DNA from: an uncultured Candidatus Binatia bacterium
GTDB taxonomy: Bacteria > Desulfobacterota > Binatia > Bin18
Direction: 5' to 3'
DNA: 64,000 nucleotides
Assembly: GCA_965200965.1 (NCBI GenBank)
Contig: OZ241744.1
Location: 2,752,001 to 2,816,000, forward strand
Part shown: in pieces, positions 8,677-61,274 of the stretch
How the letters are laid out: each line of letters starts with the position of its first letter
Position numbering within the stretch: the first letter of the stretch is position 1
Program-made: the position numbers and the translations under genes
Notes under the pieces: model-generated
What the model saw: only the letters and a program-made list of their open reading frames with translations
Told to the model about the DNA's origin: nothing
The model's database searches: none

Positions 8677-8686
8677 GGCCTCTCTT

Positions 8687-28771: not shown

Positions 28772-28882
28772 GTGACGTGCCCTCTACGCTGCGGTCTCTC
28801 AAGGCGAACCTGGTAAAGAACGCGGTCAGGCAAGGTGAACGATGCTATCGTCTTGATGAGGTAGTCATCATTGTTCACCGTG

Positions 28883-30197: not shown

Positions 30198-30301
30198 CAC
30201 CTTCCCCCTCTTTCGGAGCTGCGAGAAGGGAGCTCGTCTTGCCTTCCTCTCGACCGGATAAGACGATTCCCCTTTCAAGACTGGTCAAGCGTCGCAGGAG
30301 T

Positions 30302-30691
30302 CTACCTGCTTCCCGGACTGTTGCCAAGGGATTCGAGCCAGGGCCGGTTGTCTTTGGAAAAATATCCCCCCAGCACAAGCAGCACGAGGACGACAAGCCC
30401 AACGACGATTGGGCGCACAAACGGCCGAGACGCTTGCCTCGGCACGCCTTCCACGGTCGTTGTTTTTGGGATATCAGCCAGGGAGCGGGCTACGGTTTCG
30501 GCCGGGTCCAGGTCAGGAAGCCTTGCGTAGGCACGCAGGAAGGGGACCAGATACAGGCTATCGGCTGGCAGGCGCGGATCGCCCTGCCCCTCTGACAGGT
30601 CTGGGATATGCGTCTGCCGGCACACCTCTTGGGGCGACAGCCCCCGCTCTTCTCGTTTTTGCCTGAGTTGTGTGGCGAGTTCTCCGGCCAT
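30302..30691 (-). CDS. RodZ-like HTH-TM protein, truncated/degenerate
   Basis: LRQKREERGLS..V...T.I...FLRAYAR..LDP + TM; HTH looks internally shortened. Confidence 0.6.
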   Translation of the reverse strand: MAGELATQLRQKREERGLSPQEVCRQTHIPDLSEGQGDPRLPADSLYLVPFLRAYARLPDLDPAETVARSLADIPKTTTVEGVPRQASRPFVRPIVVGLVVLVLLVLGGYFSKDNRPWLESLGNSPGSR

Positions 30692-30748
30692 ATCGCGTGC
30701 TTTCTGCCCGGTTCAGGCGTGGCAAAGGGAAGCGTGAGTTCGCAAAGG

Positions 30749-31847
30749 TCAGGATGTGTGACGGTGGAGGAGATGGGCCTCAATGAAAGGGTCGATATCG
30801 CCGTCGAGCACCGCGTCTGTATTGCCGACCTCAACCCCGGTCCGGTGATCTTTCACCATCCGGTAGGGATGCAGGACATAGGAGCGAATCTGGCTGCCCC
30901 AGGCAATATCCTTTTTGCTCTTTTCCAGGTCCTCCATCCGCTCTTTGTGTTTCTCCAGTTCATGCTCATACAGGCGGGCGCGCAAAATTTTCAGCGCCAT
31001 TGTCCGGTTGCGATGTTGGGAGCGCTCATTTTGGCAGGTGACGACAATGCCGCTCGGCAGGTGGGTCAGGCGGACGGCTGAGTCGGTCTTATTGACATGC
31101 TGGCCACCGGCTCCGCTGGCCCGGTAGGTGTCTACGCGAAGATCCTCGGGGCGCAGATCAATCTCAACGCTGTCGTCAATCTCTGGATAGACGAACAGCG
31201 AGGCAAAAGACGTATGGCGCCGGGCATTGCCGTCAAAGGGAGAAATGCGGACGAGGCGGTGAATCCCCGCTTCGGTGCGCAGATAGCCATACGCATACGC
31301 GCCCTCTACGGTGAAGGTGGCGTTCTTCAGCCCACCTCCTTCTGCCGGCAGGTACTCAACAAGGTCGGTAGTAAAGCCGCGCCGCTCTGCCCAGCGCAGG
31401 TAGAGGCGGAGCAACATATCGGCCCAGTCCTGGGCTTCGAGTCCTCCGGCACCGGGATGCAGACTTACGATGGCATTGTGGCTGTCGTGCTCACCGCTGA
31501 GGAGGTGGCGCATTTCGGCCGTGCTGACGGCCTGCTCAAGCTCGGCCAGCGCGCGTTCGACCTCACTGGCCGCCTCGGCGTCGCCCGCCTCGGCCATGTC
31601 AAAGAAGACCACGGCATCGGCGAGGGCCTGCTGGTGCTTTTTCCAGGCGTCAACCGTCTCACGCAGCGCGGCGCGTTCTTTGAGGACGGCCTGGGCTCTG
31701 TCTTGATCGTGCCAGAAGTCATTGGCGGCGGTGAGTTCTTCGAGCCTGGCGGCGCGGGCCTCTTTGACGGCAATGTCAAAGATGCCTCCCGAGTTTGTCC
31801 ACCTGGGTCTGGAGTGCAGTCAGTTTTTCCTTGAGCTCGGCCAGCAT
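30749..31847 (-). CDS. prfB: Peptide chain release factor 2 with programmed +1 frameshift
   Basis: SPF and GGQ motifs; GGGAGG-CAT-CTT-TGA-C slippery site at 31775-31790; upstream frame MLAELKEKL...RHL. Confidence 0.97.
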
Positions 31848-33463
31848 ACGCCTCCCTGTGACAGAGAGGAATCGGCTTGTCTTCCTCTCTGGTGACGATG
31901 GTAGTACACACCCCCCAGCATACCCAGACAGCCGAGGGAACACAAGTGGGCAAATACATCCCCGTATCGGGTATAAAAGCTGCGCACCCGGGGCCAGGTG
32001 ATTTCTTTGACAAAGAAGGTCGTTTCGTACAGTTCGGTGCGGGTCTGTATCGCTCCTGTCACATCAACCACCGCGGAAATCCCGGTATTGGCCGCCCGGA
32101 CGAGCGGGACACGGTTTTCAACCGCGCGCAGGGCTTCCATCATCAGGTGTTGATATGGGGCCGCGGTCCGGCCGAACCAGGCGTCGTTGGTGATGTTGAC
32201 CAGAAAGGTAGCGCCCTGCTTGACAAAGTGACGGGCAAAGTCAGGAAAAATTCCCTCGTAACAGATCAGGACGCCAAAGGCGTGCGGCAGGTCGTCTTGT
32301 TTGCCGCTCGAATTCGTCTTTGGGAGCGTGAAGACGGTTGGCCTGGTACCGGGGGCAAAGTCGCCAATGCCTTCAACAAGTTTATCCAGAAAAAACAGCA
32401 AGCTGTTTTGAAAAGGAATAAACTCGCCAAACGGAGTGAGAATCATCTTGTCGTAACGGTCTACGACCTCGGCGTCGGCAGACAGCAGATAGGCCCGGTT
32501 GAACAGGGTGAGTTGTCGTGCGGTGCGGCGAAAGGCGGGGCTGCCGAACAGCAGCGGAGTTGTGGTTTCGCGCGCCAGATTAAGAATCTGACCCCGGTAG
32601 GTATCGTCTGACTGAAAGAAAAAGGGTACCGCGGTTTCCGGCCAGACGATCAGGTCGGCGGCCGCGGCCTGGCGCGTCATGTGGGCGTAGTGGGCGATCG
32701 TGTCGACCTGAAAAGCCGGCTGCCATTTTTCGTGCTGTTCGATGTTGCCCTGGACGACGCCGACGCGCAGACGCTGGTCGTGGGGTAAGGCGGCCAGCTG
32801 AGAGCGACGCCAGGAACCCCAGGCGATGACGCACAGGACGAGGGCTGCAGTCCCCAGCAGCAGGCGTCCGCGCCCGGGACCGCGTGTAGACACCAGGGTG
32901 AACAGGACCAGGTTGCCGAAGATGACCAGGGCGGAGATGCCGTACACGCTGGTCACCTCGGCAATCTGGATCAGATTCAGCGAACGATGTTGCGAATAGC
33001 CCAGACTGACCCACGGAAAACCGATAAAGAAAAACGACCGCAGCCACTCCAGGCTTACCCACAGCAGGGGACCGAAGACCAGCAGCCGTCGCCATTCGCT
33101 TGGGGAAGGCGATTCCTCTTTGCACCAGCGGACGCCGAGGGCAAAGGTGCCGGTGTAGACGGCCAGAATGCTGCACATCAGGAAGAGGGGGATGACGGCC
33201 ACGGCCGGGGGGATATTGCTATACAGACCGATGGTATGCACAACCCAGTAGACGGTGCAGAGATAGAAGCCCATACCGCTGACCCAGCCATAGAAAAAGG
33301 CGTGGCTGAGGGGGCGCTCCCATACCACCCGCAGCAGCGGGACAAAGGCGAGCCAAGCCACCAGACCGAGGTCGGCTTTGGGGAAGGCGAGCGACAGCAG
33401 CATACCGCTGACAAAGACGACCAGGGTTGGCCGGATGGCCAGATGGCGGGATACCTGTTTCAT
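31820..33463 (-). CDS. lnt: Apolipoprotein N-acyltransferase
   Basis: GFPW, QGNI, WPETA, YDK..L.PFGE, ICYE, NDAWF, RAANTGIS. Confidence 0.95.
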   Translation of the reverse strand: MKQVSRHLAIRPTLVVFVSGMLLSLAFPKADLGLVAWLAFVPLLRVVWERPLSHAFFYGWVSGMGFYLCTVYWVVHTIGLYSNIPPAVAVIPLFLMCSILAVYTGTFALGVRWCKEESPSPSEWRRLLVFGPLLWVSLEWLRSFFFIGFPWVSLGYSQHRSLNLIQIAEVTSVYGISALVIFGNLVLFTLVSTRGPGRGRLLLGTAALVLCVIAWGSWRRSQLAALPHDQRLRVGVVQGNIEQHEKWQPAFQVDTIAHYAHMTRQAAAADLIVWPETAVPFFFQSDDTYRGQILNLARETTTPLLFGSPAFRRTARQLTLFNRAYLLSADAEVVDRYDKMILTPFGEFIPFQNSLLFFLDKLVEGIGDFAPGTRPTVFTLPKTNSSGKQDDLPHAFGVLICYEGIFPDFARHFVKQGATFLVNITNDAWFGRTAAPYQHLMMEALRAVENRVPLVRAANTGISAVVDVTGAIQTRTELYETTFFVKEITWPRVRSFYTRYGDVFAHLCSLGCLGMLGGVYYHRHQRGRQADSSLSQGGVCWPSSRKN

Positions 33464-33531
33464 GCCGAAACGGCCACTCCGCGAAGGCGCATCGCCGTAT
33501 CCGGTCGGGAGGAAGGCAAGACGAGGCCCCT

Positions 33532-34032
33532 TTAATCCCGCCACTCCTGGAGTCCTGGCAGGGCTTTGAGTTGGCGTTCTTTGGACCGCATCTGCCGGGC
33601 GGCGCTGGTTGAGACCTCGTGGTCGTAGCCCGCCAAGTGTAAAATCGCGTGAATCAATAAGACCTGGATTTCTTCGGCCGTGCTGGAGCCGCGCTGGGCG
33701 GCTTGGCGAGCTGCGGTCTCGACCGAGATGATGACCTCGCCGAGCAGGAACGGGCAGGCCGCGTCGGCCAGGGGGAAGGCCAGCACATCAGTCGGGGTGT
33801 CCTGGTGACGGTACTGACGGTTGAGACGGCGCATCTGGGGGTCGCTGACCAGGGCGATGCTGAGTTCGGCCGGGGTCTGTCCCAGGTGGCGCAGGATCGT
33901 CGTGGCCCAGCCTTGCAGCGCGGTCCGACTGACTGCCGGTGTCGTCCCGCAGATGTCGATGACGAGCCCTGGCCTGGCGGCGACGGCGGTCTCGGCGTTC
34001 TTGTCTGAGTTGCTCTCGGTGTGCTTGGTCAT
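33532..34032 (-). CDS. ybeY: rRNA maturation endoribonuclease YbeY (start uncertain)
   Basis: LN.QYR..D.PTDVLAF, H.ILHLAGYDH. Confidence 0.92.
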   Translation of the reverse strand: MTKHTESNSDKNAETAVAARPGLVIDICGTTPAVSRTALQGWATTILRHLGQTPAELSIALVSDPQMRRLNRQYRHQDTPTDVLAFPLADAACPFLLGEVIISVETAARQAAQRGSSTAEEIQVLLIHAILHLAGYDHEVSTSAARQMRSKERQLKALPGLQEWRD

Positions 34033-35020: not shown

Positions 35021-35070
35021 CCTGCCCTCCTGCCAATTCCTGATAATTCGGTCATCCTGCGCAATCCTGG

Positions 35071-39358: not shown

Positions 39359-39391
39359 AGCTGTCCTGACATATCGGAAGAGGCCAGGCAA

Positions 39392-40555: not shown

Positions 40556-40687
40556 GGCTGCGGGTCCTCCTGCTGCGCACCGCCCATCATCATACACAGG
40601 ATAGCGGCGATCAAGCCGTCTCAGACAGGCGTAGTCCTGCGGGGCTGGCCCGTGATAGGGGCCATGCTGAAAGAAGGAGGCGACGAC

Positions 40688-40915: not shown

Positions 40916-40940
40916 CTCCGCAGATGCGCTGATCACAAGA

Positions 40941-43900
40941 TTAAACCAGAAGCTTCTCGATTATCTTGGCAATGTGCTCTGAATCCAAGCCACCGTCTGA
41001 ATTGTCGCAGGTCTCAATCAAGATGCCTGCCGGGTCGCCTCCGTCTTCGTGGGGGAGTATACCGGCGTTGATGTACTCGTTCCGTTTACGCTCCCAGCGG
41101 GCTCGGTATCCTGGATCAGCGAGCATTCCAAGGTGCTCCCAATAGAACGTTATCCCGCTTGCAGGATCGGCGATTGTGAAATCTGGATAGCGCTCTTTCC
41201 CATTGGGAAGGACGAGCCGCTTCTCGTATGCGTAGTCAATCCCGCGGGCGTGGAGTTTGTCGGCGATGACAAGCTCGGATTTGGATCTGACCAGTTCCCC
41301 GCGCTCGGTGCGGTGGATAAGGCTTTCTTCAAGAAACCGCGTTTCGTTGACTTTGCGGGGTCGCGGGTCCACAAACAGGTTCGTCATGCGCCGGGCGATC
41401 TCGGAGTACTCTTCACCGGCAAATCGCCGGAAGTCCGCGATCTGCCCTTGGTGGAGAATAACCAACCGCTTGCGATGCCTCGTTAGCGCCGTGTATAGCA
41501 GTTCGCGAGAAAGCAGCCAGCAGGGATTCGGCAGTACCACGAAGGTTATTCCGAACTCACTTCCCTGCGTCTTGTGTACCGTCAATGCATAAGCCAGTTC
41601 AAGCTGGTTCCTCGCCTCGTCGCCAAATTCTTGCTTGCTGAATCCGTACTTGATACCGAGTTGACCGGCAAATTCGACCTCTAATTTCTTGGGAGAACCC
41701 CGTAAATTTTTGTGCTTGTATTGGCCGACAACAATGCCGATGTCTCCGTTGGCAATGTACGCTTCGTCCTCTGGAACCCGAGGGTATACGTCGTGACGGT
41801 GCTGATTGACAATGTTGATTACTTTGTCTCCGTACAAAAGCCCCTGTGGGCCGAAAGGCTGGGGAACTTTTCTATTCCGTCCCACTTTCTCCGCGACCTC
41901 GCGCCAGTGTCTGCGGAACCGTTCCTGAACAGCCCGGTTGAGGGCATCCACTCCCTCAAGACCAGCTCTGACGGGCGACAGAATTTGCCAATCCTCAACC
42001 TTCCGCGCTGCTCCCGGTTTGTTATTGTATTTGTTCCAGAAGAACGCCCGGTCAAGGTCTTTGAACGGAGAACCGCCCAACGATATCTCGAAACCCAGCT
42101 CGTCGTCAGATTCTTTCAGATCAAGCCCAGCAACTAACTCTTCAATCATCTTCTGCTGGAGGTCCCGCGTATCGCTCCACTGGACCACTCGAAGACGCTG
42201 ATTGCCTCCGGCTGCGATAGTGTCCCACACTTGATCGGCGTCCGGGGCCAGCGGGTGACCGTTGAAATGGGAGGCGAGCAATACATCGTCCGCGCGTTCT
42301 CCAGCAGTCTGCCGGCGAGGCACTGTGAGCTCAGCGTAGCATCGGGCACAGCGCGGAAAGGAGGCCTCAATATTTTCTGGCGCTAACTTTTTGACGATAT
42401 CAACGAACGGACGACCGGCACCGATGGGCGGAAGCTGCCTGGGGTCGCCGACCAATATGTAGCGTTCAACGTTCGTGCAGGCGTCGAACAGGGCCGCGAG
42501 TTGGTCTTCGGTGAGCATTGAGCATTCGTCAACGATTACGGTGCAAAAGGTATCGCACCGCGGCGCGGCTTGGTTGGGAAAGTAAGCCCCGGTCTCTCTG
42601 TCGTAGCGTTGGTATCGACTCAGAAACTGCGCCAGCGTCCGCCCCTTCCCGCGTTGTCCTGTCTGCTCTTCCAGACGGACACGGGCCTTTCCGGTCGGCG
42701 CGAGCAAGAGAATGTCCTTTTGCTGAATATCGGGCAGGCGGCAAACCATCTTGAGCAGTGTAGTCTTGCCAGTTCCAGCGGGTCCGATGAGCACGGAAAG
42801 TCGTGACCGACACAATTGTTCAATGGCGGCCGCTTTTTCCGAACGCGCCCGGTCTTCAAGCGCCCGGTCTTCAAGCGCCCGGTCTTCAAGCGCCCGGTCT
42901 ACCAACTCACGCCAATCGTAGGATGCCCGATGGGGCTTGCCCTTTTGCCTCCTCTCAACCTCTCGGCGGATAATTTTTCGGCAGTCTGCCAGCCGATCAG
43001 TCTGGTAGGCAGGCTCACCCGTTCCCGTATCTACCCGCTGTACGACCTGCTCGAAAGAAGGTTCGGTGGCAGCGAGCACATCTTCGCCAAGCGGGCATGG
43101 CGGTTGTAGTGCCCGGTCCCGAGCGTGTTGGATGAGCAGGTTTTGAGGCAATAGCGTATGTCCCTGCGCGGCAGCTTCTTCCAGCAGTTCCACTACTCGC
43201 GCCCGTACCCGGCGCGGGTCCGATGGATCATCGACGCAGCTAGGCTTTGGGATAGGGAATTGGGTGCGGATTGCCTCGTCAGGAAACAGCCCGCGATCCA
43301 CGACGCCAAATGCGATTGGGATGACACTCCGGCGATCCTGTTCAAAGAGGAGATAGGGATTGGCCAGAAGATCATCGTCGCTTGCCTCAATGCCGGCTCT
43401 CTGCCGCTCCGTTTTGTCATAAATTCGAAGCGCTTGTTTTTCGTCTATCGCGCAGCGACTGAGCAATTGAAGCAAAGCCCGCCGCTTCTTACTCAGGCGG
43501 CTCCACCCATTGCACAAACTCGGCTTGATGAATTGTCGGGCGGGTCCCTCAAGGCGTTGCGGATCTCGCATTACCTTATCAAGAAGGTCCCAGGAGTTGG
43601 GATTGCCGGAACGCTCTCGTTCACGTTCAATCTCGTAGGCGAGCAAGGTTCCGTGCTGAAAGCCCCACTCATATCCGAATGCCGAGAGCGCTGAGCCAAG
43701 CCCGGGGAAGGCTCCCCGGGCCTGCCATAGCCTGTTGAGTTGCGTGTCAATCCAACTCAAGCATGCTTCCCACGGCCCCTCAATTCGCATCCGGATACGC
43801 TCCAGGGTGGCGGAACAGGCAATGAGCGATGCAACTGCGCCGTCATGCGTCAGGAGTTCTGAACCGTAGGAGTATTCGTTAAAATACTCGTCCGGCGCAA

Positions 43901-44726: not shown

Positions 44727-44863
44727 CTTCTATTCACTCTCTATCTGTCCTCTTAACCTACAGCCAATTTGACATTCTGTCAACGAGAATACGCCCACCC
44801 TGTTCGGCTGGACAACACCGGCTCATGTATGCCATGTAGGGAGAGTGTGGAAGGAGGACAGCC

Positions 44864-46381: not shown

Positions 46382-46400
46382 CGATACTGGCCCGCCGCTG

Positions 46401-48575
46401 TCAGTCCCAGAGCGACGGGTCTGAGCCGCAGCCGCTCCCTTCAAGGGACTGCTCCAGTGCTTCAACGAGCCGCATCTGATCCGGCTCTGTGGCGGCAGAG
46501 AACACCGCACCTTGTGTCGAAATCACCTGCTTGACATAGCTATCGAGACGCTGCTCCAACTCGCCAAGAACCCTCTCCTCTTGACAAGTCTCCCTCATGG
46601 TATGGATTTCGCACAGAAAGCAGCCCATCAGAATGACTTTCGCGTCACTGAGGGACACCTTGATCCCGGCTGATTTCAGCCGCGCGACCTGTTCTCTTGC
46701 CGTGTCAAGCGCAGACCGATGCCGTGTGCTGACTTGGCCCTGCGCCTTACGGCAGACCAGAATGAGATCAAACTGAATTGGCGAGTGCGCCTGTTGCAGA
46801 GGCACAGACACCGACATTTCGGCCTTGATCGGGTAGGCCCGGGTACAGAACAACCCGGCCTGTCTGATCGCCCGATGGACACAGGTCCAGCCCTCGTGTC
46901 GGGCGTGGTGATAGGTGAAGATACATAGACCGGCGTCACTGAGGACCCGGCTGCATTCGGCAAAAACCGCGCTGAGCTTTGCCGTAAAGCGGGCAGGGTC
47001 AGTGTCCTGTACCTCGCTGGCTCTTCTCGTGGTCAGGGTAGAGGAAAATTCGAGCGCCTGATTGAGCCAGTAGTAAAAGAAGTCGGCAAGCTGCGAGTAA
47101 TGCACATTGTCAAAAAAAGGCGGGTCGGTCACAATGACATCAACGCTTTTGTCGGGGAGATCAACGCGACTGGAATCTCCGCAGGCGAGGTAGAGTGTCT
47201 TTGGCTGCGAGGCGAATTGGGCCGAACTGTCTGCTATCGGGGCCGAGCCGGGCCGATTGATCCCGCCGACCTTGCTGCTCTTTGCGGCTCGAATCAGGAG
47301 TTCGGACGGATCAGCCTTATAGGTCAGCGCCCGCTCAACGCGCGAACGAAACAGGCCCGAAAATGCCCCCGAAGACTTGCTCGTTCCCCACAGATTGGCT
47401 TCAATCGGCATCATCTCCGGCTTCAGGACATGGTGAGAAAACATATGTCGTACGGCTCCTGTCCCTTCTCCCTTGAATGACGCGAACAGGTTGTTGAACT
47501 CCAAGGTTCCAGAGAAGAGACAGGCAAACAGGCGTTTCAGGTCCGCACCTTCGATGCTCTTGGTTGCCTCCAGAAGATGCTTGATGCAGACGAGTTGTCT
47601 GTCGGAGAAGAGCTCGTGCCAATACCGATAGTTGTGGTTGAGGAGTTGGTCTGTATTGTAGCCGGGTACGATAGCCGCGAGCGGAAAACTGTCTGAGACT
47701 GCGGCGTACTCTTTGGCGACACGACCTTCAAGGGCCGTGTCAGATCCATTCATCGGCTCGTACAGCTTCTGCCCGTCTGCTGTCAGCAGCAGCTTGGCAT
47801 AGCGCCGAACGGGCAAGGGCCCTTCAAGGGTTTTCATCCTGTCAGTGAGGCGGAAGGTATGCCGGCAGCCGTCGCACCGGACATGCGCGCCGCGTCTATT
47901 TCCCTGCTGGGGGTTGTAGACAAACGAACATACCGGGCAGCGGACACAATCGGCGTTGTAGACGGTCACATTGACCGCGCCACAGGCCGGGCAGAGCGCG
48001 CGGGCAGTTGGGTCTTTTCTGGCAACGGCGTTCTTGGAGAACACCCGCGTCTTGAAAAGGTCAATCGCTTGCTCGCATTTCGGACAAGAGACCACTTTGA
48101 CCAGGAAATAGTACAACACGGTCGCGTCCTGTCCCGTGCTGGTTCGGGTCTGGAAGTAGCTGAGGAGTTTCGGGGCCAGGCTTCGCTCTACACGCCGGTA
48201 GGTGGAGAGCACTTCAGGGACCGAGTATTCGGAGAACGCCGCCCGGCAGGCGATGTAGGCAACTGGATTGATGTCGCGGCCGGCGACCTTGCAGCCGAGC
48301 TTGAGCGCTTCGCCAACCGCAACCCCACTGCCCATGAAGGGGTCAAAGACGACGGTGTTCGCAAAGCTGTTCCTGGTGTAGAAACGCTCCCAGAAATCGT
48401 CGTCATCCTCTAAACACGCCCCTAGGATGATGCCCCGGAAAACCGAGCCTAACCTCCGCGCCCACCACTTGTGGAGATAGTAGAGCGGCCGGTAGACCTC
48501 CTTGCGCCAGGATTCCCGCTCGGCCACGAGCGAGAGTTCGGCAAAAGGAAAGTCTTGCTCTATGAGTTTTGGCAC
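46401..48575 (-). CDS. Amino-DNA methyltransferase, DUF1156-type, with Zn-ribbon insert
   Basis: LHKWWARR, DPFMGSG (motif I), four CxxC, TDPPF (motif IV). Confidence 0.88.
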   Translation of the reverse strand: MPKLIEQDFPFAELSLVAERESWRKEVYRPLYYLHKWWARRLGSVFRGIILGACLEDDDDFWERFYTRNSFANTVVFDPFMGSGVAVGEALKLGCKVAGRDINPVAYIACRAAFSEYSVPEVLSTYRRVERSLAPKLLSYFQTRTSTGQDATVLYYFLVKVVSCPKCEQAIDLFKTRVFSKNAVARKDPTARALCPACGAVNVTVYNADCVRCPVCSFVYNPQQGNRRGAHVRCDGCRHTFRLTDRMKTLEGPLPVRRYAKLLLTADGQKLYEPMNGSDTALEGRVAKEYAAVSDSFPLAAIVPGYNTDQLLNHNYRYWHELFSDRQLVCIKHLLEATKSIEGADLKRLFACLFSGTLEFNNLFASFKGEGTGAVRHMFSHHVLKPEMMPIEANLWGTSKSSGAFSGLFRSRVERALTYKADPSELLIRAAKSSKVGGINRPGSAPIADSSAQFASQPKTLYLACGDSSRVDLPDKSVDVIVTDPPFFDNVHYSQLADFFYYWLNQALEFSSTLTTRRASEVQDTDPARFTAKLSAVFAECSRVLSDAGLCIFTYHHARHEGWTCVHRAIRQAGLFCTRAYPIKAEMSVSVPLQQAHSPIQFDLILVCRKAQGQVSTRHRSALDTAREQVARLKSAGIKVSLSDAKVILMGCFLCEIHTMRETCQEERVLGELEQRLDSYVKQVISTQGAVFSAATEPDQMRLVEALEQSLEGSGCGSDPSLWD

Positions 48576-48580
48576 TGGCG

Positions 48581-49420
48581 TTATTCCGACAGCTGGGGCA
48601 TGGACGCCGTGCGGTCCTTTGGCCGTCGTGACTTGCAGGCGCGAAAGATGTCCTGTCGAACTGGCAGTTGGTCGAGATGCAGGGAATGTCCGGTTGAGTT
48701 GTCGATCACGGCGTAGAGGAAAGAGTTCTGGTACTTGTCGTCTCTGATAATGAGGTCGGTGCAGTTTGCCTTATGCGTGGCGAGATAGGACAAATCGTGC
48801 TGTTTGATGACAAGGATGTGACGAAGATGAAAGAAGCGTAGTTTGTAATTCAGTGGATTTGGATAGGTGTACATTCGTCGATGCCGGACTGAGCCTTCTC
48901 CGTATGGGCCATGATCGTACTCGCTTTGATTGGCGTGCTTCGCATCCTTGTGCAGAGCAAAGTCATAATTGAGGAAATCACCGTCCATCAGAATTGACGT
49001 GACCATTGAGGAACTGTCGTTGCTCAGCAAGGCAAAGAGATAGAAGCAGGGGACCTCCACGGTGTCTTGTCCAACCTTGACCAGCGCCTTCCCACAAGGA
49101 AGACAGCTATTGTAATCGATCGTCAGGCCCCTTGGGTCTTTCCCATTAGTCTGCTGAATCAGCTTTTTTACCTCAAGGCCGAGAATTGAGTTGCTCGGCT
49201 TATGTCGCAGCACGATATCGGGCGTTATCAGCTTTCCAGCGTGAACCACTTCGACATTGGGAAGCGCCTGCCTGATCTCGTTGCCTAGCCAGAAATCGAA
49301 TGGATCGTCTTGAACTGTGCCAATCAGCGACGGAGCCCGCAGAGCAACGGGAATGACACCTTGCTGTATCTTCGCAGACAACTCCGCATATATCCTTTCA
49401 ACGAGTTGTATAGGATTCAT
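48581..49420 (-). CDS. Putative restriction endonuclease
   Basis: PD-x14-EVK (TPDIVL...GLEVKK); directly upstream of the MTase; more AT-rich. Confidence 0.6.
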   Translation of the reverse strand: MNPIQLVERIYAELSAKIQQGVIPVALRAPSLIGTVQDDPFDFWLGNEIRQALPNVEVVHAGKLITPDIVLRHKPSNSILGLEVKKLIQQTNGKDPRGLTIDYNSCLPCGKALVKVGQDTVEVPCFYLFALLSNDSSSMVTSILMDGDFLNYDFALHKDAKHANQSEYDHGPYGEGSVRHRRMYTYPNPLNYKLRFFHLRHILVIKQHDLSYLATHKANCTDLIIRDDKYQNSFLYAVIDNSTGHSLHLDQLPVRQDIFRACKSRRPKDRTASMPQLSE

Positions 49421-49885
49421 CAGAACTACGAGAGAAACGTTTGCCGCGACCCCTAATTCCTTTACCGAAGAGAATAAGTGCGTCCCTCTTGAGCTTGAGT
49501 CGTGATCCAATCACGGGGATCGTCCCACATAACCGTCCACATAATTTCGCCGAATAAGGAACCACCCGTCTTCGGAAAATGTGTCTTCCAGTCAGTCTGA
49601 CGATGCCAGGAGCTTAGGATTTGCCTTCCCAGCCGACTTGAATTCAGGCTTTTCTCCCCCCGATTCAATTCGCTCTCCACGGCCCTGACAATGGTACCGT
49701 ACATAGCATCACAAAGATCAGGGACATCACACTTTGCCTGACGATATAATTTCCAATGGGAGCCTGAACCTGTCCGGTTTGCCGGTGTCGGAGAATCGTT
49801 GTAGTAAAGCGTGGTTTCCTCCTTTTTCTTCTCTCCCGCCCATCGGGCAGGAGAGATTTCGATGTGGACGACAGGCCGGAGGCGG

Positions 49886-50431: not shown

Positions 50432-50445
50432 TGAACACCTCCTTC

Positions 50446-51534: not shown

Positions 51535-51550
51535 AGCTGTGTCTCCCCGA

Positions 51551-52504: not shown

Positions 52505-52610
52505 GCGCTGCTCTCCTTTTGGACGAATCGTTTTGTCTTCCTTTCGAAAGGTCAGGACGATTCATCGCTGTCTTTCCACATCTGACAGCTATCCGTCAAG
52601 CGATGAGAGA

Positions 52611-53555: not shown

Positions 53556-53860
53556 AGCGCTGATTACCTGTTAGTGATTTCGCAGGAAATCACTCTTCGT
53601 CGCGTTTCGTGCCCTTGGCAAGCAGAGGAGTATACTTACCGCACCCCTCTGTGGAACTTTTGAAGGAATGTGATGGCTCGGGATTTTGTCTGAAAATTGC
53701 CGCGTACTTCGTCTCCCGTGGAGTATTGGACAGGAATCTCATACCGCACAACTTGCATGGCGGGCGCAGTTTCATCATGGGATGCAATGAACTGAACAGC
53801 TATTGATACTGACGAACAGTTGGGGATGGGCGCTCGGCTGTTCTCTCATGCTTCGACAGG

Positions 53861-54406
53861 TTAAGACGATTCATCTTTCGGCTCTTTATCGGCTTTGAGC
53901 GGCCGACCTTCGCGGATCAGCTTCTTGACCCGTTGGCTGTAGATATCCCGCTTGAGGCGGCTGATGCGGTCAATAAACAGTTTGCCGTCAAGATGATCGA
54001 GTTCGTGCTGGAGAGCCACGGCCAGCAGGTCTTCGGCCTGGATGGTGATTTCTTTCTGGTCAAGTGTCCAGGCGTTGACTTCGACCTTGGCGGCCCGTCT
54101 GACCTCGGCGGTATAATCAATGACGCTCAGACAGCCTTCTTCCCAGACCAGACAGCCTTCACTGGCGGTGATGCGTGGATTGACCAGTTTCAGCAGGTCT
54201 TTGCCGGGTTCCTCGTGATTCACGTCAAGCACGACAATGCGCTGGGTCGTGCCGAGTTGGGGGGCGGCCAGACCAACGCCCGGGGCGTCGTACATGGTTT
54301 CCACCATATCCCCAATCAAGCGCACCAACTCGCCATCCATGTTCGTGACCGGGGTTGAGGTTTTGGTCAGGCGCTTATCTGGAAAGTGCAGAATTTCTCG
54401 TATCAT
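53861..54406 (-). CDS. def: Peptide deformylase
   Basis: GVGLAAPQ, EGCLS, QHELDHLDG. Confidence 0.98.
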   Translation of the reverse strand: MIREILHFPDKRLTKTSTPVTNMDGELVRLIGDMVETMYDAPGVGLAAPQLGTTQRIVVLDVNHEEPGKDLLKLVNPRITASEGCLVWEEGCLSVIDYTAEVRRAAKVEVNAWTLDQKEITIQAEDLLAVALQHELDHLDGKLFIDRISRLKRDIYSQRVKKLIREGRPLKADKEPKDESS

Positions 54407-54414
54407 CAGGCCCT

Positions 54415-56739
54415 CTATAACATACTATACGGATCAACATCAACGATTGTGCGCAAGGTGGGCCGGCCTCGCGCCGCGCTCGGCCCGCCGTCGTGCAGGA
54501 GTTCTTGACGAACCTGCCGGACCAGGCTGTGCAGGGCGCGGGGGCGTTTGCCTTTGAGCAGCAGGTGCCAGCGGACGCGGCCTTTAATCTTTTCAATCGG
54601 GGCTGGGGCCGGACCTAGCACAGCGGGTGAGCCGTGGTCTTCTTTGATGAGGGCCTGTAAACGCCGGGCAAAGCGCTCGGCGTAGGCCATGACTGTTTCA
54701 CTGTCGGCGCTCTCAAAGCGGATATTCACCGCGCGGGCAAACGGGGGGTAGTCGAGCCGCTTGCGGTAGCCCAACTCCTGCTTGGCGAAGCCGGCGAAGT
54801 CGTGCTGAAGTGCGGCCTGGATGCTGTAGTGAGCGGGCGAGTAAGTCTGAATGATGACCCGCCCAGGGTCATCTCCGCGCCCGGCCCGGCCGGCCACCTG
54901 AGCCAGGAGTTGAAAGGTTCTCTCCGCGGCACGGAAGTCGGGCAGGTTGAGAGAGATATCGGCCAGCAGTACGCCCACCAGGGTGACGCTTGGCACATCG
55001 TGCCCCTTGGCAATCATTTGGGTCCCGACCAGAACGTCAAGCTCCCCTGCCCGCCAAGTGCCTAAAATCCGGTCCAGCGCGCCTCGCCGGCGGGCGGTAT
55101 CGCGGTCGAGCCGACCGACCCGGGCGCTGGGTATCAAGCGTGTCAGGGCCTCTTCCACCTGTTGGGTCCCGACTCCACTGTCCCGCAACAATGCACTCGA
55201 ACAACTCGGACAGCGCTGTGGCGGAGGTTTGGAGAAGCCGCAGTAATGACAGCGCAGCGCACGGTCGGCGCGGTGCCAGGTAAGCGTCACGCTGCACTGC
55301 CCACACGCCACTGCCTGCCCGCACTGGCGACACTGGAGGTAGTTCGCATACCCACGGCGATTCATGAACAACAGACTCTGCCGACCGGCTTGATGATTCT
55401 CTATCAGAGCCTGTTGGAGGGGGACCGAAAAAATTCGAGTTGGACTGCACGGCTGGAAAGATGGATCGTCTTGCGGCCGGCCTTGGCGGCGCAGGTCTAC
55501 GACCTCCACCTCTGGGAGCGGACGCGAAGCGATCCGTTGAGGCAGGCTCAGCAGGGTGTAGCGCTTGGACTGGCTATGCAGGTAGCTTTCGAGCGAGGGG
55601 GTGGCCGAGCCTAGGACCACTGGGCAGGAGGATATCCTGCCGCGGACGACCGCCAAGTCTCTGGCATTATATCGCACGCCCTCTTCCTGCTTGTATGCGC
55701 CGTCGTGTTCTTCATCAACCACGATCAGACCCAACCGGCTCACCGGGGCAAAAATCGCCGAGCGAGCACCAATGATGACCTGCGCCTCTCCGCGTGCAAT
55801 CCGCTGCCACTCAGCCCAACGCTGGCTGGGTCGCAGGCCGCTGTGCATCACGGCGACCTGCGACCCAAAACGCTGCCGGGCGCGTTCAACCAACTGGTGG
55901 GTCAGCCCGATCTCCGGGACTAGCATCAGCACATGCTTGCCGCTGCGCAGGGCGGCGTGAGCGGCGCGGACATACACCTCGGTTTTGCCGCTGCCAGTCA
56001 CCCCGTGGAGCAGGAACACCCGAAAAGCCACTGACCCAAGGGCGGCGCTGATCTGGGCGTAAGCAGCTCCCTGCTCAGACGAGAGGCAGAAGGGAGGAAC
56101 GCTCGTCCCGGTTCCGGCCGGGGCCAAGTGGGCTTTGGGCTGTCGTGTCTGCGGGATATGCTCCCGGACGGTGAGCAGATTTTGGGCTTCCAGACTGTGC
56201 AGAATTCTGCCAATCGGCAGGCTGGGAAAGCGCTGACTGAGGGATTTTGTTGTGACCTGCTTCCTGGTCACAACAAAATCCAGGATTGTTCTTTCCCTCC
56301 CGGTCAGTTCCAGAGCGCCCTTTTGAACATCAGGTCCATCACTTTTGACTTTTGACTTTTTCACCAGCGTCACTACCCGCTTACTCTCACGCCGCAAGCC
56401 GCTGGGCAGTATTGTGCTCAGTATGTCGCCTAACGACGCCAGGTAGTAATTGGCTGTCCACCGCCACAATTCCATCATTTCTTTCGAAAAAACAGGGGTT
56501 TCATCAAGAACATCAAGGATGTACTTCAAATTTTTACCAGCCAGATCGTGCGAAGGGCTGAAGCGGGTCACAATGCCAGTCATTTTCCGACGGCCAACGG
56601 GCACAAGAACCCGCATACCAGGGAGGACACCTGCCTGAAACACCTTGGGGATGGCGTAGGTAAGTTCCTGGTGGCAGCCAATTGGAGCCGTAACCACCAC
56701 ACAAGCGAAAGGAAAAGATGAAGTTTTCGCCTCAGACAT
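54415..56739 (-). CDS. priA: Primosomal protein N' helicase
   Basis: GVTGSGKTEVY, DEEHD, SATPS, CxxC clusters, GTQMIAKG, QVAGRAGR. Confidence 0.97.
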   Translation of the reverse strand: MSEAKTSSFPFACVVVTAPIGCHQELTYAIPKVFQAGVLPGMRVLVPVGRRKMTGIVTRFSPSHDLAGKNLKYILDVLDETPVFSKEMMELWRWTANYYLASLGDILSTILPSGLRRESKRVVTLVKKSKVKSDGPDVQKGALELTGRERTILDFVVTRKQVTTKSLSQRFPSLPIGRILHSLEAQNLLTVREHIPQTRQPKAHLAPAGTGTSVPPFCLSSEQGAAYAQISAALGSVAFRVFLLHGVTGSGKTEVYVRAAHAALRSGKHVLMLVPEIGLTHQLVERARQRFGSQVAVMHSGLRPSQRWAEWQRIARGEAQVIIGARSAIFAPVSRLGLIVVDEEHDGAYKQEEGVRYNARDLAVVRGRISSCPVVLGSATPSLESYLHSQSKRYTLLSLPQRIASRPLPEVEVVDLRRQGRPQDDPSFQPCSPTRIFSVPLQQALIENHQAGRQSLLFMNRRGYANYLQCRQCGQAVACGQCSVTLTWHRADRALRCHYCGFSKPPPQRCPSCSSALLRDSGVGTQQVEEALTRLIPSARVGRLDRDTARRRGALDRILGTWRAGELDVLVGTQMIAKGHDVPSVTLVGVLLADISLNLPDFRAAERTFQLLAQVAGRAGRGDDPGRVIIQTYSPAHYSIQAALQHDFAGFAKQELGYRKRLDYPPFARAVNIRFESADSETVMAYAERFARRLQALIKEDHGSPAVLGPAPAPIEKIKGRVRWHLLLKGKRPRALHSLVRQVRQELLHDGGPSAARGRPTLRTIVDVDPYSML

Positions 56740-57436
56740 TTGACAATCTACTTTTTGTTTGCCATAGTAACTATCGGAAGGGCTGTAACATACCCCGGAT
56801 ATTGGCACAAGCTCGGTAAAAATGATTCGGAATACAGGTGAGACACTTGATCCGCTGGTTTCGGCAATACGGGTCAGCAGCTATCAGGGCAAAATACGGC
56901 CTGACGGCCTGTATCGGTCACAAGCAGGACGACCTCAGACATGGGAAACAGGGATTCCGTACCTGCGTGCGGGAACGGCCGGAAATAAAGATGAATTACC
57001 GGTTTTGGACCGGCGGCAGGAGCGTAGAGCATCAGACGATGCGTGGGAAGGGAGAACGACGGTATTGGCTGGGACACTCGGAGGCTTGGCTGTCAGTGGT
57101 GAGGCGGGGCGGTGGAGTGGTGGAAGCGAGGGGTAGTGCGCTTCTTGACTCCGAGCCTCCGAGTGTCCCTGTCGATGTGGTAAGCGGGTGGTTGCGGTAG
57201 TGGAATGACAGGGATCAGATAGGGGTGAGGGGGAGGAAAATATTTCCTCAAATCCTTGTGTCACCTCCACCCCTATCAAAAAATTTGCCTTGAGACAAGA
57301 GCGGCAACACATATGCGCCTGCTCAGGGAGAAGAAAACAGCAGCAGGGTGGGAGAGCAGGGGGAATAGGCCTCAGGTCAGGACGGTGTGTTGGGGAGGAA
57401 TGACGGTTGGGATTCCTGACCGGAAGGTCTGCACCT

Positions 57437-57988
57437 ATGCCGGACAATATCATACTGACCGGCTTCATGGGGACTGGCAAAACCCAGGTCGGCAGACGGC
57501 TGGCCAGGCGGCTGGGGTGGCCGTTTGTTGATACAGACCTCGTTATCGAACGAGAACTCAATATCTCTATCCGACAGCTCTTTGCGGAAAAAGGGGAAGC
57601 CTGTTTCCGCCAGCAAGAACGGTCGGTGATCGCCCGGGTATGCCAATACCAACGGCATGTTATTGCGACCGGGGGCGGAGCGATTGTTGATCCGGCCAAC
57701 GCCCAACAGTTCAAAAACAGTGGTTTGGTGGTGTGTTTGACCTCGGCCCCTGAGGTTATTTTCGCCCGGGTGCAGGGGAATACCGACCGGCCGCTCTTAC
57801 AGGCCGAAAAATCGAAAGGAAGCCACGATGATTCCTCTTTCGAGCCACTCGCAACAATTCGGACCCTGATGGCAAGTCGGGCTGACGCCTATGCCAGAGC
57901 ACAGATCGCTATTGACACCTCGCAGCAGAGTGTGGAACAGGTTGTTGCAGCAGTCCTGAGCGTATATCGGGACTACGCCAGAGCCTGA
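57437..57988 (+). CDS. aroK: Shikimate kinase (with palindromic insert)
   Basis: GFMGTGKT, GE..FR, ATGGG, RPLL. Confidence 0.96.
   Translation: MPDNIILTGFMGTGKTQVGRRLARRLGWPFVDTDLVIERELNISIRQLFAEKGEACFRQQERSVIARVCQYQRHVIATGGGAIVDPANAQQFKNSGLVVCLTSAPEVIFARVQGNTDRPLLQAEKSKGSHDDSSFEPLATIRTLMASRADAYARAQIAIDTSQQSVEQVVAAVLSVYRDYARA
57812..57846 (+). repeat. 35-bp palindromic element, in-frame in aroK
   Basis: TCGAAAGGAAGCCACGATGATTCCTCTTTCGAGCC = SKGSHDDSSFEP. Confidence 0.9.
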
Positions 57989-58019
57989 AAAGGCAGGACA
58001 CCTGTTCGTACCTCTGCCT

Positions 58020-59159
58020 ATGGAGAGCATCACCGTTCATCTTGGCCAGCGTTCCTACCCGGTCAGGATCGGGTCTGGAGTTGTGACCCGTCTCGGCCCG
58101 CTGTTGGAGATGAATCATCCTGATACGCAGTCGAAAGGAAGCCACGACGATTCCTCTTTCGAGCCGGGCCTGACCGCCAGGCGCGTTGCGGTGGTGACGG
58201 ACAGTAATGTCGCGCCATATTACCGTGAACCGCTGGTACAGAGCCTGACCGGGGCCGGTTATGAGCCGTGGGTGATTGTACTGCCGCCCGGTGAACAGCA
58301 AAAGGACTTGGCAACGCTGTCTCTGGTGTATGACAAACTGATTGAAGGACGGATTGAACGTCGTTCTCCGTTGATCGCTCTGGGCGGAGGAGTGATCGGT
58401 GATCTGACCGGATTTGCCGCGGCGACATTTCAACGCGGCGTCCCCTTTATCCAGGTGCCGACAACGCTGTTAGCCCAGATTGACGCCAGCGTGGGGGGGA
58501 AAACCGCGGTCAACCATCCGGCTGGCAAGAATTTGATCGGAGCTTTCTATCAACCGCGTTTGGTCCTCATTGATGTTGATACGCTCAAAACCCTGCCCCA
58601 ACGCGAGTTTGTGGCAGGGGTTGCAGAGGTGATCAAGTACGGGGCGATTCTGAGCCCAGACTTGTTCGCCCTCTTGGAGGAGCAGCTCGACCGCTTGCTC
58701 GGGCTGGAGCCGATGTTGCTGACCTCGATCATCAAGACCTGCTGTCAGCTCAAGGCGCAGGTAGTTGAAGCGGACGAGCAAGAAACCGATTACCGGGCAA
58801 TTCTGAACTTCGGACATACCCTGGGTCACGCGGTTGAGAGAGCGACCGGGTATGAGCGGTTCCTGCACGGCGAGGCAGTCGCCATAGGTATGGCGTTTGC
58901 CGCCAAGCTGTCGCTCCAACGCGGTCTGTGTGGAGCGGCAACCCATGACCGCCTTGTGGGATTGCTCCAACGGGCCGGTTTACCGGTTGATATCCCGCCG
59001 GACATTGCCCAGGAGCATCTCCGTACAGGCATCGGGGCAGACAAAAAGGTCTCGGCCGGCAAGGTCAAATTCGTCTGTCTCGAGCAGTTCGGCAAGACTC
59101 GCTTTGAGGTGCTCAGCACCGCCGAAATTGTCCGCCACATATCCCAGGATGAACGATGA
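58020..59159 (+). CDS. aroB: 3-dehydroquinate synthase (with palindromic insert)
   Basis: GGGVIGD, PTTLLAQ.DASVGGKT, KNLIGAF, LNFGHT.GH, HGEAV. Confidence 0.98.
   Translation: MESITVHLGQRSYPVRIGSGVVTRLGPLLEMNHPDTQSKGSHDDSSFEPGLTARRVAVVTDSNVAPYYREPLVQSLTGAGYEPWVIVLPPGEQQKDLATLSLVYDKLIEGRIERRSPLIALGGGVIGDLTGFAAATFQRGVPFIQVPTTLLAQIDASVGGKTAVNHPAGKNLIGAFYQPRLVLIDVDTLKTLPQREFVAGVAEVIKYGAILSPDLFALLEEQLDRLLGLEPMLLTSIIKTCCQLKAQVVEADEQETDYRAILNFGHTLGHAVERATGYERFLHGEAVAIGMAFAAKLSLQRGLCGAATHDRLVGLLQRAGLPVDIPPDIAQEHLRTGIGADKKVSAGKVKFVCLEQFGKTRFEVLSTAEIVRHISQDER
58131..58165 (+). repeat. 35-bp palindromic element, in-frame in aroB
   Basis: 34/35 identical to the aroK copy. Confidence 0.9.
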
Positions 59160-59191
59160 TCCCTTCCTGATGAGGGGGTCATCATCGTTCA
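59150..59191 (+). terminator. Stem-loop at aroB 3' end (no U-tract)
   Basis: TGAACGATGAT...ATCATCGTTCA arms with inner CCCTTC/GAGGGG. Confidence 0.45.
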
Positions 59192-59292
59192 CCTCGCTCT
59201 CGGTCTTCCCCCCACCGACTCACGGTTGATCGAGAGCATCGGACGTTATACCCTGAGACGAGTCGAACGCTCCGAATCCGTACAGGTATCCT

Positions 59293-59991
59293 ATGGAGTT
59301 ATTGCACAAGAGAAGAGTGTACCAGGTGTGTTTTGCCCTCGCGTTGTCTGGGTGCTCAGTAAGTACAGCACCGAGTTCAAATCCAAGCCCCGGCCCGCCG
59401 CCCTCTTCGGCCTTGCCGCCCCCGGCTGCTCCCACTCCCCCGGAACTCCAGACGAATTACCAGAATGACCCATCGCTGACCCGAGGGGAGAAAGTCAAGC
59501 GCATGGACCGGGCACTGTCCCGTTCGCTCAATACGTTTGACGACCGCCGGAATGCGGCCGCGCAGGATGGTGGGAGACCTTCTTCCGTCACAGCCGGGAA
59601 CGCCACGGGTTCGAGCGACATGCCCGAGGCGAGCTTGGGCGGGTCGATCGCCTCTTCCGAAATATCTGGAACCGAAGTGCTGTCGCAGGTCCCAGGCGGC
59701 CCGGCTGTCGGCGCACCACCGCTCACCGACGTGACGGGGGTAGACCCGGCCTTGGGCATCCCGCCGACCTCTGACGGGATGGAAGCACCGAACAGGAACC
59801 CCACACGGATACTCGGACGCCAGCCGGTCCCTGGCAGCGGCCAGTTGCCGAAAGACATTCCCGCCGCCGACAACGACAGCGTCCTTGAGGCGCAGATCCG
59901 TGCGGCGGCAATGCAGGAACAAGATCCGCAGATGCGGGAACGCCTATGGAACGAATACCGCCGATACAAGGGTCTGCCGCTCAAAGAATAA
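59293..59991 (+). CDS. Pro-rich lipoprotein
   Basis: ALALSGC lipobox; disordered middle; helical C-terminus DSVLEAQIR.AA..E.DP..R..LW.EY. Confidence 0.75.
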   Translation: MELLHKRRVYQVCFALALSGCSVSTAPSSNPSPGPPPSSALPPPAAPTPPELQTNYQNDPSLTRGEKVKRMDRALSRSLNTFDDRRNAAAQDGGRPSSVTAGNATGSSDMPEASLGGSIASSEISGTEVLSQVPGGPAVGAPPLTDVTGVDPALGIPPTSDGMEAPNRNPTRILGRQPVPGSGQLPKDIPAADNDSVLEAQIRAAAMQEQDPQMRERLWNEYRRYKGLPLKE

Positions 59992-60017
59992 GCGCGGTTC
60001 GGTGCCCGATAGGACTC

Positions 60018-61274
60018 GTGAAGAAACTGACCGTCTACCTGGTGTGCGTCGCCCTCACCCTATCGGGCTGCGCCGCAAATCCAGTCTTGAGCCCGGGTCA
60101 GAGCGTTGGATTGCCGCCCTCCTCCACTCTGGCTGACACGCCCGCGCCGAAAAGACGAACCGTCTCAACCAATCGAGAGAAAGACAAGACGAATCGTCTT
60201 TTGAGTCAGAAACCCAGACTGGACATCATCATCCCGGTCTTTGACCCCGGGCTTGAGGGCACATCCGCCAAGGACGAGGTATGGCCGGAACTGCGGCGGG
60301 CTGAAGCCAACCGCTTTGCCCACAAGCTGAAACTGGCCCTTGAAGAAACCGGTACCTTCGGGGCCGTGCGCGTCACCCCCGACACAACTGCGACCGGCGA
60401 CCTGTACGTCATGGGCCGCATTCACGAGTCGACCGGCGAGCGGGTTGAAATCGGCCTGGAAGTACGCGATATTTCCGGTGCGGCCTGGTCTGGCCGGTCC
60501 TTCGCTCATACGGTGGACAACCGCTTCCATAAAAATATTCGTCACAAGGGCCAGGACCCCTACGACCCGGTGTTCAGGAGTGCCGCCCAGTATCTCGTCC
60601 AACAACTCCAGCAGCGGCCGGCTGCCGACCTGGAACAGCTCAAAATGCTGACCGACCTCCGCTTTGGTGTCAGCCTCGCCGAGGAAGCCTTCTCTGAGCA
60701 TCTCAAGCAAGATGACGGCAGCTTCGCCCTCGCCAGTTATCCCAGCAGCGCTGACCCCATGCTGCGGAGAACCAGGGCCATTCGCGTCCGCGATCAGCTT
60801 TTTGTTGATGATCTGCAAGAGCACTACCGGTTGTTCAGCGAGAAGATGAACACCAGCTACCTGGTCTGGCAAGAACAGAGCCTGGCCGAAGTCGAGGCCG
60901 AGAGACAGACCAGGCGCAAAGCCCTCGTCCAGGGGCTTGCCGGCGCGGTGCTGCTTGGGCTTGGCGTGGCTGGTATCGCTATGGCCCCCCAGGGCAACCT
61001 CGGTACCGTGGCGACAACCGCCGGCTTGGCCAGTGGTGTGGCCGGCGCGGTCATGCTGGGCAAGAGCTTTCAGACCAGCAAAGAAGCCAAGGTCCACCGT
61101 GACGCGCTCAACGAGCTTGGCGAGTCGATTGACGTTGAGCTTGCCTCTCAGGTCGTCGCGTTTGAGAAAGACACGGAGAAGCTGACTGGGACGGCAAAAG
61201 AACAGTTCGGTCAGTGGCGCGCCTTTCTCAAGAAAATCTACCAACAAGAACGAACTCCGGAGGTGGAACTCTAA
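60018..61274 (+). CDS. Hypothetical lipoprotein
   Basis: GTG start MKKLTVYLVCVALTLSGC; long ORF with glycine-rich hydrophobic hairpin near C-terminus. Confidence 0.75.
   Translation: MKKLTVYLVCVALTLSGCAANPVLSPGQSVGLPPSSTLADTPAPKRRTVSTNREKDKTNRLLSQKPRLDIIIPVFDPGLEGTSAKDEVWPELRRAEANRFAHKLKLALEETGTFGAVRVTPDTTATGDLYVMGRIHESTGERVEIGLEVRDISGAAWSGRSFAHTVDNRFHKNIRHKGQDPYDPVFRSAAQYLVQQLQQRPAADLEQLKMLTDLRFGVSLAEEAFSEHLKQDDGSFALASYPSSADPMLRRTRAIRVRDQLFVDDLQEHYRLFSEKMNTSYLVWQEQSLAEVEAERQTRRKALVQGLAGAVLLGLGVAGIAMAPQGNLGTVATTAGLASGVAGAVMLGKSFQTSKEAKVHRDALNELGESIDVELASQVVAFEKDTEKLTGTAKEQFGQWRAFLKKIYQQERTPEVEL

Follow-up and report, generated by a model that had tools for sequence, protein, structure and literature searches.

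The Rickettsia palindromic elements (RPEs), in the portions of PMC10969869 and PMC2229807 drawn on here, are short, genus-restricted palindromic selfish DNA of several subfamilies, with frequent in-frame insertions in housekeeping genes and no demonstrated transposase; their mobility has "no experimental support" (PMC2229807, same portion). Here we describe a family of comparable habit in a 64,000-nucleotide stretch (the window, positions 2752001-2816000) of the genome of an uncultured Candidatus Binatia bacterium (G000; a single contig of 3.62 Mb, 61.5% G+C). Its unit of about 51 bp is very probably a mobile palindromic element.

The 51-bp family differs from RPEs, as these sources present them, in size (RPEs have 105-150 bp), in forming one simple stem-loop and in belonging to a different phylum. 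It has no conserved peptide, being read in five frames on both strands, whereas a conserved encoded peptide is, with the length, a criterion of an RPE proper. The lack of target duplication, demonstrated below, is listed as "?" for RPEs in the same portions. With REP (repetitive extragenic palindromic)/REPIN-RAYT systems and IS200/IS605 ends (PMC3116915, PMC6006769 and PMC3733652, in excerpt) the family shares a short hairpin-forming repeat, related neighbours, no sign of target duplication and a plausible single-strand route. However, it has no unpaired GTAG or CGTC foot (in the flanks, only C at -4 and G at +4 stand out), no RAYT gene in its host, and a single long-stemmed unit where REPINs have a doublet of short palindromes; 38 of the 101 full copies lie in genes, whereas REPs are almost wholly extragenic. 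[quoted passage not shown] Unlike them, the present unit has no direct repeats or TA ends, is not AT-rich, is much shorter, has co-varying arms, and has no cognate insertion sequence (IS) found in the searches below.

The 51-bp family works like an RPE, yet it is not an RPE by size or peptide, not a textbook MITE and not a REP. In-frame palindromes as a phenomenon are already known, and so are repeats without a dedicated transposase (the CGTC repeats; PMC3733652, in the excerpt concerned), but the family itself is apparently undescribed: the literature search yielded no paper on it, the supplements, whose repeat tables could bear on it, lying outside that search. The way in which palindromes of the RPE type move has been a question ever since they were discovered. 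On this the family supplies what those systems lack: dozens of sites whose empty and filled forms can be matched exactly between close genomes, waves of subfamilies that can be dated, a target bias open to measurement, and an asymmetry of the ends that limits the possible chemistry.

The 51-bp unit, its insertion and its spread

The preliminary description, made from the window alone, had proposed a dispersed palindrome of about 35 bp. The repeat does exist and far exceeds what chance would give, but the 35-bp consensus comprises only the loop and the right arm of the 51-bp unit: on profile extension, conservation reaches 22 bases to the left of it. An iterated profile seeded on the sites first noted gave 113 non-overlapping genome matches (score >20) and nhmmer gave 126 (E<=0.1), each against 0 in a Markov-5 control genome. 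When left and right half-profiles are used to define loci, the family amounts to 140 loci in G000, 101 of them with both halves (0 full-profile matches in the control) and 94 of these exactly 51 bp long; the half-profile threshold lets some chance matches into the 39 solo halves.

The arms of the unit occupy positions 1-16 and 36-51 and enclose a conserved, purine-rich loop of 19 nt (17-35), which varies no more than the arms. Among 93 ungapped copies, stem pairing is 85% Watson-Crick with 208 two-sided changes; with the partner slid by 1-2 columns, the values are only 19-28% and 33-46. Arm sequence thus drifts among copies while the pairing stays. Stem mismatches are G-T in 65 cases and A-C in 71 (15 and 35 in the mRNA sense), and this lack of a G-U preference gives no sign of selection on an RNA stem; it is what a DNA-level, strand-symmetric constraint would produce. 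Rfam has no match in the 64-kb window, and the old copies there fold only moderately (z +0.6 to -3.1). The unit has terminal inverted repeats and no coding capacity for mobility.

Two subfamilies, A (71 full copies) and B (30), have a common loop and different arms; the window copies of this pair are all B. A hairpin census revealed related subfamilies with like ends, C (50 matches at E<=0.1, core of about 52 bp) and D (10), and the end motif AGG/AAG is constant across subfamilies. Two other identifications were rejected: an attC-type site, because subfamily B does not preserve the AAC/GTT core, and a CRISPR repeat, because the repeats of the five arrays of the genome do not resemble the element.

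Insertion is documented by empty sites. For 48 of the 94 full copies, a comparable site was available in 820 kb of the sister genome G007, the closest relative searched: 19 are exact 51-bp gaps, 5 are gaps within 3 bp of this length, 7 are shared and 17 are of other kinds. Reciprocally, 6 of the 31 G007 copies correspond to exact 51-bp gaps in G000. A 2-bp target duplication fits only 2 of the 19 exact empty sites, and column identity across the element ends is at background except for a target bias; models with a 1- or 2-bp duplication are rejected on these grounds, and since the exact empty sites have no target duplication, insertion is blunt. The bias is weak and consists of C at -4 or G at +4 (both in 23 copies, one in 64, neither in 7; n=94; p 1e-4 against independence), with 5, 22 and 4 copies, respectively, in G007 (n=31). 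These and the orthologue comparisons uphold the earlier proposal of a lineage-specific palindromic element that inserts into protein genes in the manner of RPEs. The orthologues are without the extra loops, instead of having loops of the same length, and many more copies than the aroK/aroB pair are significant.

The ends of the unit are asymmetric. Read in the orientation of the loop, a copy begins and ends with A..C in 30 cases, with G..T in 26, with A..T in 18 and with G..C in 4 (n=94; p 2e-5 against independent ends); the same pairs count 8, 8, 7 and 3 in G007 (n=31). Since A..C and G..T are reverse complements, the inner 49 bp lie either way round relative to the asymmetric end pair. The terminal bases are not derived from the target, and the end type is independent of kinship and neighbourhood and occurs in every arm subtype. 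Its inheritance from two founders is rejected: nearest-sequence neighbours share the type at 0.49 against 0.49 when shuffled, and the 26 near pairs at 0.50 against 0.49. At 19 sites shared by G000 and G007, mostly with old copies, the loop orientation is the same in 15, flipped in 0 and unclear in 4. Either every jump sets the ends anew, or inversion takes place in young copies where they stand. In one orthologous pair (G000:C1:2626134 and L077:17062) several adjacent left-arm bases and the last base differ, a pattern that suggests exchange of arms among copies after insertion.

The loop pattern common to A and B (3 mismatches) has 79 matches in G000, 21 in G007 and 0 in the other 53 family genomes, as also in a set of 29. 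When genome contigs were scanned for the exact loop pattern, 11 loci came up, among them no rickettsial one; 2 are real copies, and the other 9, which have no arms, look like loop matches due to chance. Exact-pattern scans gave 0 in viral contigs (three scans), 0 in JGI metagenomes and 0 in plasmids. The C arm pattern is wider and spans the genus, with 14-41 matches in each of G000, G007 and the congeners G001 and G003-G006, 1 in G002, which lies outside this element-rich group, and 0-3 in the other 294 class genomes drawn. Where empty sites are clean enough, C insertions measure 50-54 bp, and only 6 of 43 C copies are inside genes, compared with 38 of 101 for A/B (p 0.005). Subfamily A is mostly specific to G000 (18 sites empty and 3 shared in G007); B is older and more often shared. 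We infer successive waves (C, D, B, A), in which frame-preserving lengths gained access to genes, the older subfamily of about 52 bp having stayed mostly outside them because of its frame shift. A one-base change in element length would thus decide whether genes can be colonised.

Copies are clustered, with 24 neighbour gaps <2 kb against 5.5 expected, and the 41 subfamily A pairs <5 kb apart exceed each of 5000 shuffles in likeness. Within 300 kb of the GC-skew minimum (2.48 Mb), 31 of the 71 A copies are found, against 11.8 expected. The minimum adjoins mnmE, mnmG and parA-family genes, which usually flank a replication origin, and it is likely the origin. Adjacent double hairpin copies at one site occur at L138:1468-1575 (G006) and L090:15329-15436 (G007), which suggests that one neighbourhood was used repeatedly. 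In a strain about 1.4% diverged, all 7 checked copies (stretch L119) are present, so the burst there was not recent; among the contig rows listed, presence or absence does not vary between strains at these 7 copies or at the window copies spanned.

Copies in the window and inside genes

The copies in the window are collected in Table 1. The gene names assigned in the preliminary description (prfB, lnt, fmt, def, priA, aroK, aroB) agree with NCBIfam, and most of its sites hold a copy: a remnant at 31862, full copies at 52521 and 33508, and insertions of 33 bp, in frame, and 18 bp at the weak sites 32289 and 33105. A supposed back-to-back pair at 30222-30279 is in fact one full element on the minus strand. 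The 27/35 match at 60173 belongs to a full element, a net in-frame insertion of 54 bp. The weak site at 53862 is a left half, located at the def stop, and the one at 55451 in priA does resemble the right arm, yet the gene is only 6 bp longer there. The remnant near 20724 (42 bp) and the subfamily C copies at 28830 and 59144 are additional.

Table 1. Copies and remnants of the palindromic family in the window (E, nhmmer E-value; ORF, open reading frame)
Position	Strand	Copy	Location	Score and comparison
20724..20768	+	Decayed remnant, net 42-bp in-frame insertion	ORF 20380-21396, O6-methylguanine methyltransferase family (Pfam)	E 0.069; 42 bp absent in G004
28830..28883	+	Subfamily C	Intergenic	E 1.3e-11; present but diverged in G007
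30225..30275	-	Full 51 bp, subfamily B	Intergenic	E 4e-11; orthologous site empty in G004 and G007
31862..31889	-	Loop and right-arm remnant	lnt 3' end	E 0.0075; net +22 bp vs G004
32288..32320	-	33-bp remnant	lnt, 11 extra residues	Clean 33-bp gap vs G004
33098..33121	-	Left-arm remnant	lnt, net 6 extra residues	18-bp gap vs G004; longer form in G007
33483..33533	+	Full 51 bp, subfamily B	Upstream of lnt	E 1e-6
52519..52569	-	Full 51 bp, subfamily B	Between fmt and cyclase gene	E 1.2e-6; common to G007, absent in G004
53853..53879	-	Left half	def 3' end	Half-profile score 41; no orthologous site aligned
55454..55474	-	Possible right-arm remnant (uncertain)	Variable PriA linker	E 3.6; net +6 bp vs G004
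57808..57840	+	33-bp remnant	aroK, +11 aa just after RPLL motif	Full 51 bp in G007
58109..58159	+	51-bp element	aroB, +17 aa after first helix	Exact 51-bp gap vs G004
59144..59197	+	Subfamily C	Gives aroB last codons and stop	E 3e-13; common to G007
60151..60201	+	Full 51 bp, in frame	ORF 59946-61274 (lipoprotein-like)	E 3e-8; net +18 aa vs G004

Genome-wide, by our own prediction of 3297 genes, the 38 full A/B copies inside genes are accompanied by 22 at gene edges and 41 between genes, whereas 79% would be expected in coding interiors at random; 50 genes have a full or partial copy. Five of the six frames are used, on both strands; no A copy uses the sixth, which is closed in 67 of 69 of them. 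Survival in frame is explained by the length, 51 being a multiple of three, and by the five commonly open frames. A net insertion of 17-18 aa is seen at 13 of the 36 in-gene sites with an orthologue; the rest are shared, shortened in frame or noisy, and by orthologue comparison in-gene copies decay by in-frame deletion. We infer that coding insertions are mostly removed by selection and that those in tolerant loops are kept. The host genes include members of the DnaX, ThrRS, ProRS, MnmG, GpsA, MurJ, Mur ligase, HsdM and Cas3 families (Pfam; gene names inferred). With 17-aa inserts in AroB and in DnaX-, ThrRS-, ProRS-, MnmG-, MurJ- and Cas3-family genes, the family amounts to an insertion scan that nature has made of essential proteins. 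The cas3 gene at 2.84 Mb has three in-frame copies, one with mixed A and B arms. Many copies stand at gene 3' edges, and among the intergenic ones convergent gene pairs are not clearly favoured (5 of 41, compared with 206 of 1588 gaps).

In AroB, the 17 extra residues are present in G000 and G007 and absent in all 25 other rows spanning the site (30 rows, 3 of them truncated). AroK is extended by 17 aa in G007 and by 11 aa in G000, where the copy has lost its left 18 bp by comparison with G007; four other congeners and G002 have no insert, and one distant row of the alignment has an unrelated short one. The RPLL motif that precedes the AroK insert is presumably that of the LID region. In AlphaFold models both folds are kept (mean pLDDT, the predicted local distance difference test, 87 for AroB and 88 for AroK), with the inserts as low-confidence loops (AroB 34-49, AroK 124-132). 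The two copies, 319 bp apart, had been described as near-identical, and 34 of 35 bases do agree; in frame, each copy reads SKGSHDDSSFEP. Because the pair agrees at only 30/35 in G007 and each orthologue pair at 28/35, their likeness in G000 is likely due to later homogenisation, judged from these identities, by gene conversion between neighbours. Independent contigs span the aroK and aroB copies, with no 18- or 51-bp difference among the indel rows listed.

Routes of movement

The RAYT or IS200-605 transposase that had been envisaged as a linked partner was sought in G000 and G007 and not found: both PF01797 (Y1/RAYT) and our own profile from 23 peptides of relatives gave 0 candidates there. 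The two genomes also have no match to PF01548 (IS110), PF01609 (DDE_Tnp_1), PF00239 (resolvase), PF00665 (rve) or PF13358 (DDE_3), and none to PF04986, for which the control likewise had no match; PF00589 has only two matches in each, of XerC/D size (tyrosine recombinases). A Pfam search of 101 genes at or beside copies gave no transposase, nor did one of 261 atypical ORFs, on which the coverage of other IS families depends (280 of 605 candidates fell outside the scanned stretches, and about half of those scanned had no Pfam match). No dispersed multi-copy IS-like gene is evident among the self-comparison matches listed, and no long element with matching ends among the solo halves, viral contigs, JGI metagenomes and plasmids. 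The congeners G003-G005 carry DDE, IS110 and serine-recombinase genes. An activity that makes scar-free, nearly target-independent 51-bp insertions would be useful if its enzyme were found.

Other candidate partners were rejected. The one reverse transcriptase, a UG13b-type defence protein, has no copy beside its gene, G004 has another type and G005 none; this gene (L180:1048-2421) is split by an in-frame stop in G000 and open in G007 (L181). The proximity of a TnpB/Cas12f-like gene to the copy at 636 kb is a coincidence, for the locus is conserved and has its own unrelated mini-array, and the copy lies in the neighbouring gene. The TnpB/Cas12f-like gene (L208 in G000, L206 in G007, L207 in G005) follows a secretion ATPase gene, is frameshifted in G000 and, in G007, is followed by a short array of repeats of about 33 bp; the locus looks like a domesticated TnpB with a mini-array. 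The Cas1 genes of the genome have no link to the element.

Our preferred reading, in which we place somewhat better than even confidence, is that the family is a non-autonomous 51-bp palindromic element, inserted free of target duplication at about 100 sites and moved as a single-stranded hairpin by an HUH-type enzyme acting in trans; to the single-strand HUH route taken by itself we give an even chance. The folded hairpin would be cut and rejoined by an HUH-type (Y1-like) enzyme supplied in trans, which probably has since been lost or else is unrecognised. Extrusion of the hairpin on single strands exposed by replication could produce the local and origin-proximal spread, while template switching or strand exchange at the hairpin might yield compensated arms and a loop found in both orientations relative to the terminal A..C pair. 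Blunt insertion, pairing kept over sequence and local, origin-proximal spread fit a single-stranded hairpin intermediate, and such intermediates at the fork are described for IS608-type elements and REPINs in parts of PMC6006769 and PMC3116915.

Several points weigh against this reading. The enzyme is assumed, as no Y1 enzyme was found in G000 or G007, and the hairpin is not flanked by a conserved unpaired guide tetranucleotide, unlike in IS608 and RAYT systems. Simple one-strand peel-and-paste would keep the end type, so that a random end type needs an extra step. Leading- or lagging-strand bias is absent (loop 52 against 42, end type 24 against 32). The copies are related by descent, and the covariation and clustering tests therefore overstate independence. 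Finally, the low pLDDT of the inserts may only reflect the few alignment rows that carry them (2 of 18 and 2 of 14).

The need for an enzyme would disappear if host replication or repair did the work, template switching at the fork copying the repeat, correcting its arms, flipping its loop and sometimes depositing a copy at a nearby nick or gap. Two near-complete genomes, each with gained copies of its own, have no transposase of the tested families; template switching is known to leave multi-base compensated changes and inverted hairpin loops behind (PMC8794818, in the part consulted), and local spread and origin bias fit this route as well. We nevertheless consider it unlikely, because the precise, constant 51-bp boundaries and the target bias point to an enzyme, the waves C, D, B and A are confined to one genus though the replication machinery is universal, and 0 of the 15 clearly scored shared copies is flipped in place. 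A further possibility, to which we also accord a low probability, is minimal mobile DNA moving by an undescribed route: no known transposase family, blunt insertion nearly anywhere, the inner 49 bp flipping at each jump relative to the asymmetric terminal pair, and subfamilies that, once their length preserved the frame, went over from an intergenic existence (52 bp) to the invasion of genes (51 and 54 bp).

Also unlikely is a classical MITE, that is, an internally deleted IS with 16-bp terminal inverted repeats that a blunt-cutting double-strand transposase (DDE or recombinase), since lost, recognised. Terminal repeats of MITE size, the constant AGG/AAG end motif, the roughly symmetric target bias, the DDE, IS110 and serine-recombinase genes of G003-G005 and the finished burst suggested by the 7/7 copies in the diverged strain would all suit such an origin. 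Young MITEs, however, have target duplications, according to the part of PMC10969869 concerned, whereas the young copies here have none; moreover, the arms drift while pairing is kept, the loop is conserved as much as the arms, and the sets searched above hold no long element with these ends. A host-functional site kept by selection (protein-binding DNA, or an RNA hairpin such as a terminator, or an origin-near chromosome-organising site), for which the purine-rich loop, the enrichment near the likely origin and the many copies at gene 3' edges might speak, is highly improbable: the sister genome lacks most of the young copies at its orthologous sites, copies within genes are worn down by deletions that keep the frame, and there is no G-U preference, no Rfam match in the window and no clear convergent-pair bias. 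The related earlier suggestion of a DNA-binding or RNA-structure site tolerated in loops is not favoured either, since the copies are lineage-specific insertions that use five of the six frames and have no G-U preference.

Other features of the window and genome

Several of the sequencing runs that contain this DNA are labelled sponge metagenome, and no RNA dataset is among the runs listed. Just downstream of a Tad-type secretin gene (4530-7160 of the window), eight tandem units of about 370-450 bp (932-4172), each with internal repeats of 33 and 54 bp, encode short paralogous minus-strand ORFs. Near-identical local duplications occupy 6021-6797 and 7586-8689 (spacing 477 and 599 bp), of which the second contains 21-bp repeats within two ORFs of 163 aa. 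A defence-like island at 40941-49510 includes a 1261-aa helicase that matches PADLOC PDC-S68 (1560 bits) and a DUF1156-like methyltransferase.

Elsewhere in G000, two long tandem arrays (C1:271000-306000 and 1131000-1165000) contain about 27 paralogous genes for proteins of 800-1100 aa, 75-95% identical. Finally, the genome has five CRISPR arrays (about 21 to 224 repeats) and six cas1 loci, located near 1.69, 2.07, 2.22, 2.82 and 3.37 Mb and also at 0.68 Mb.

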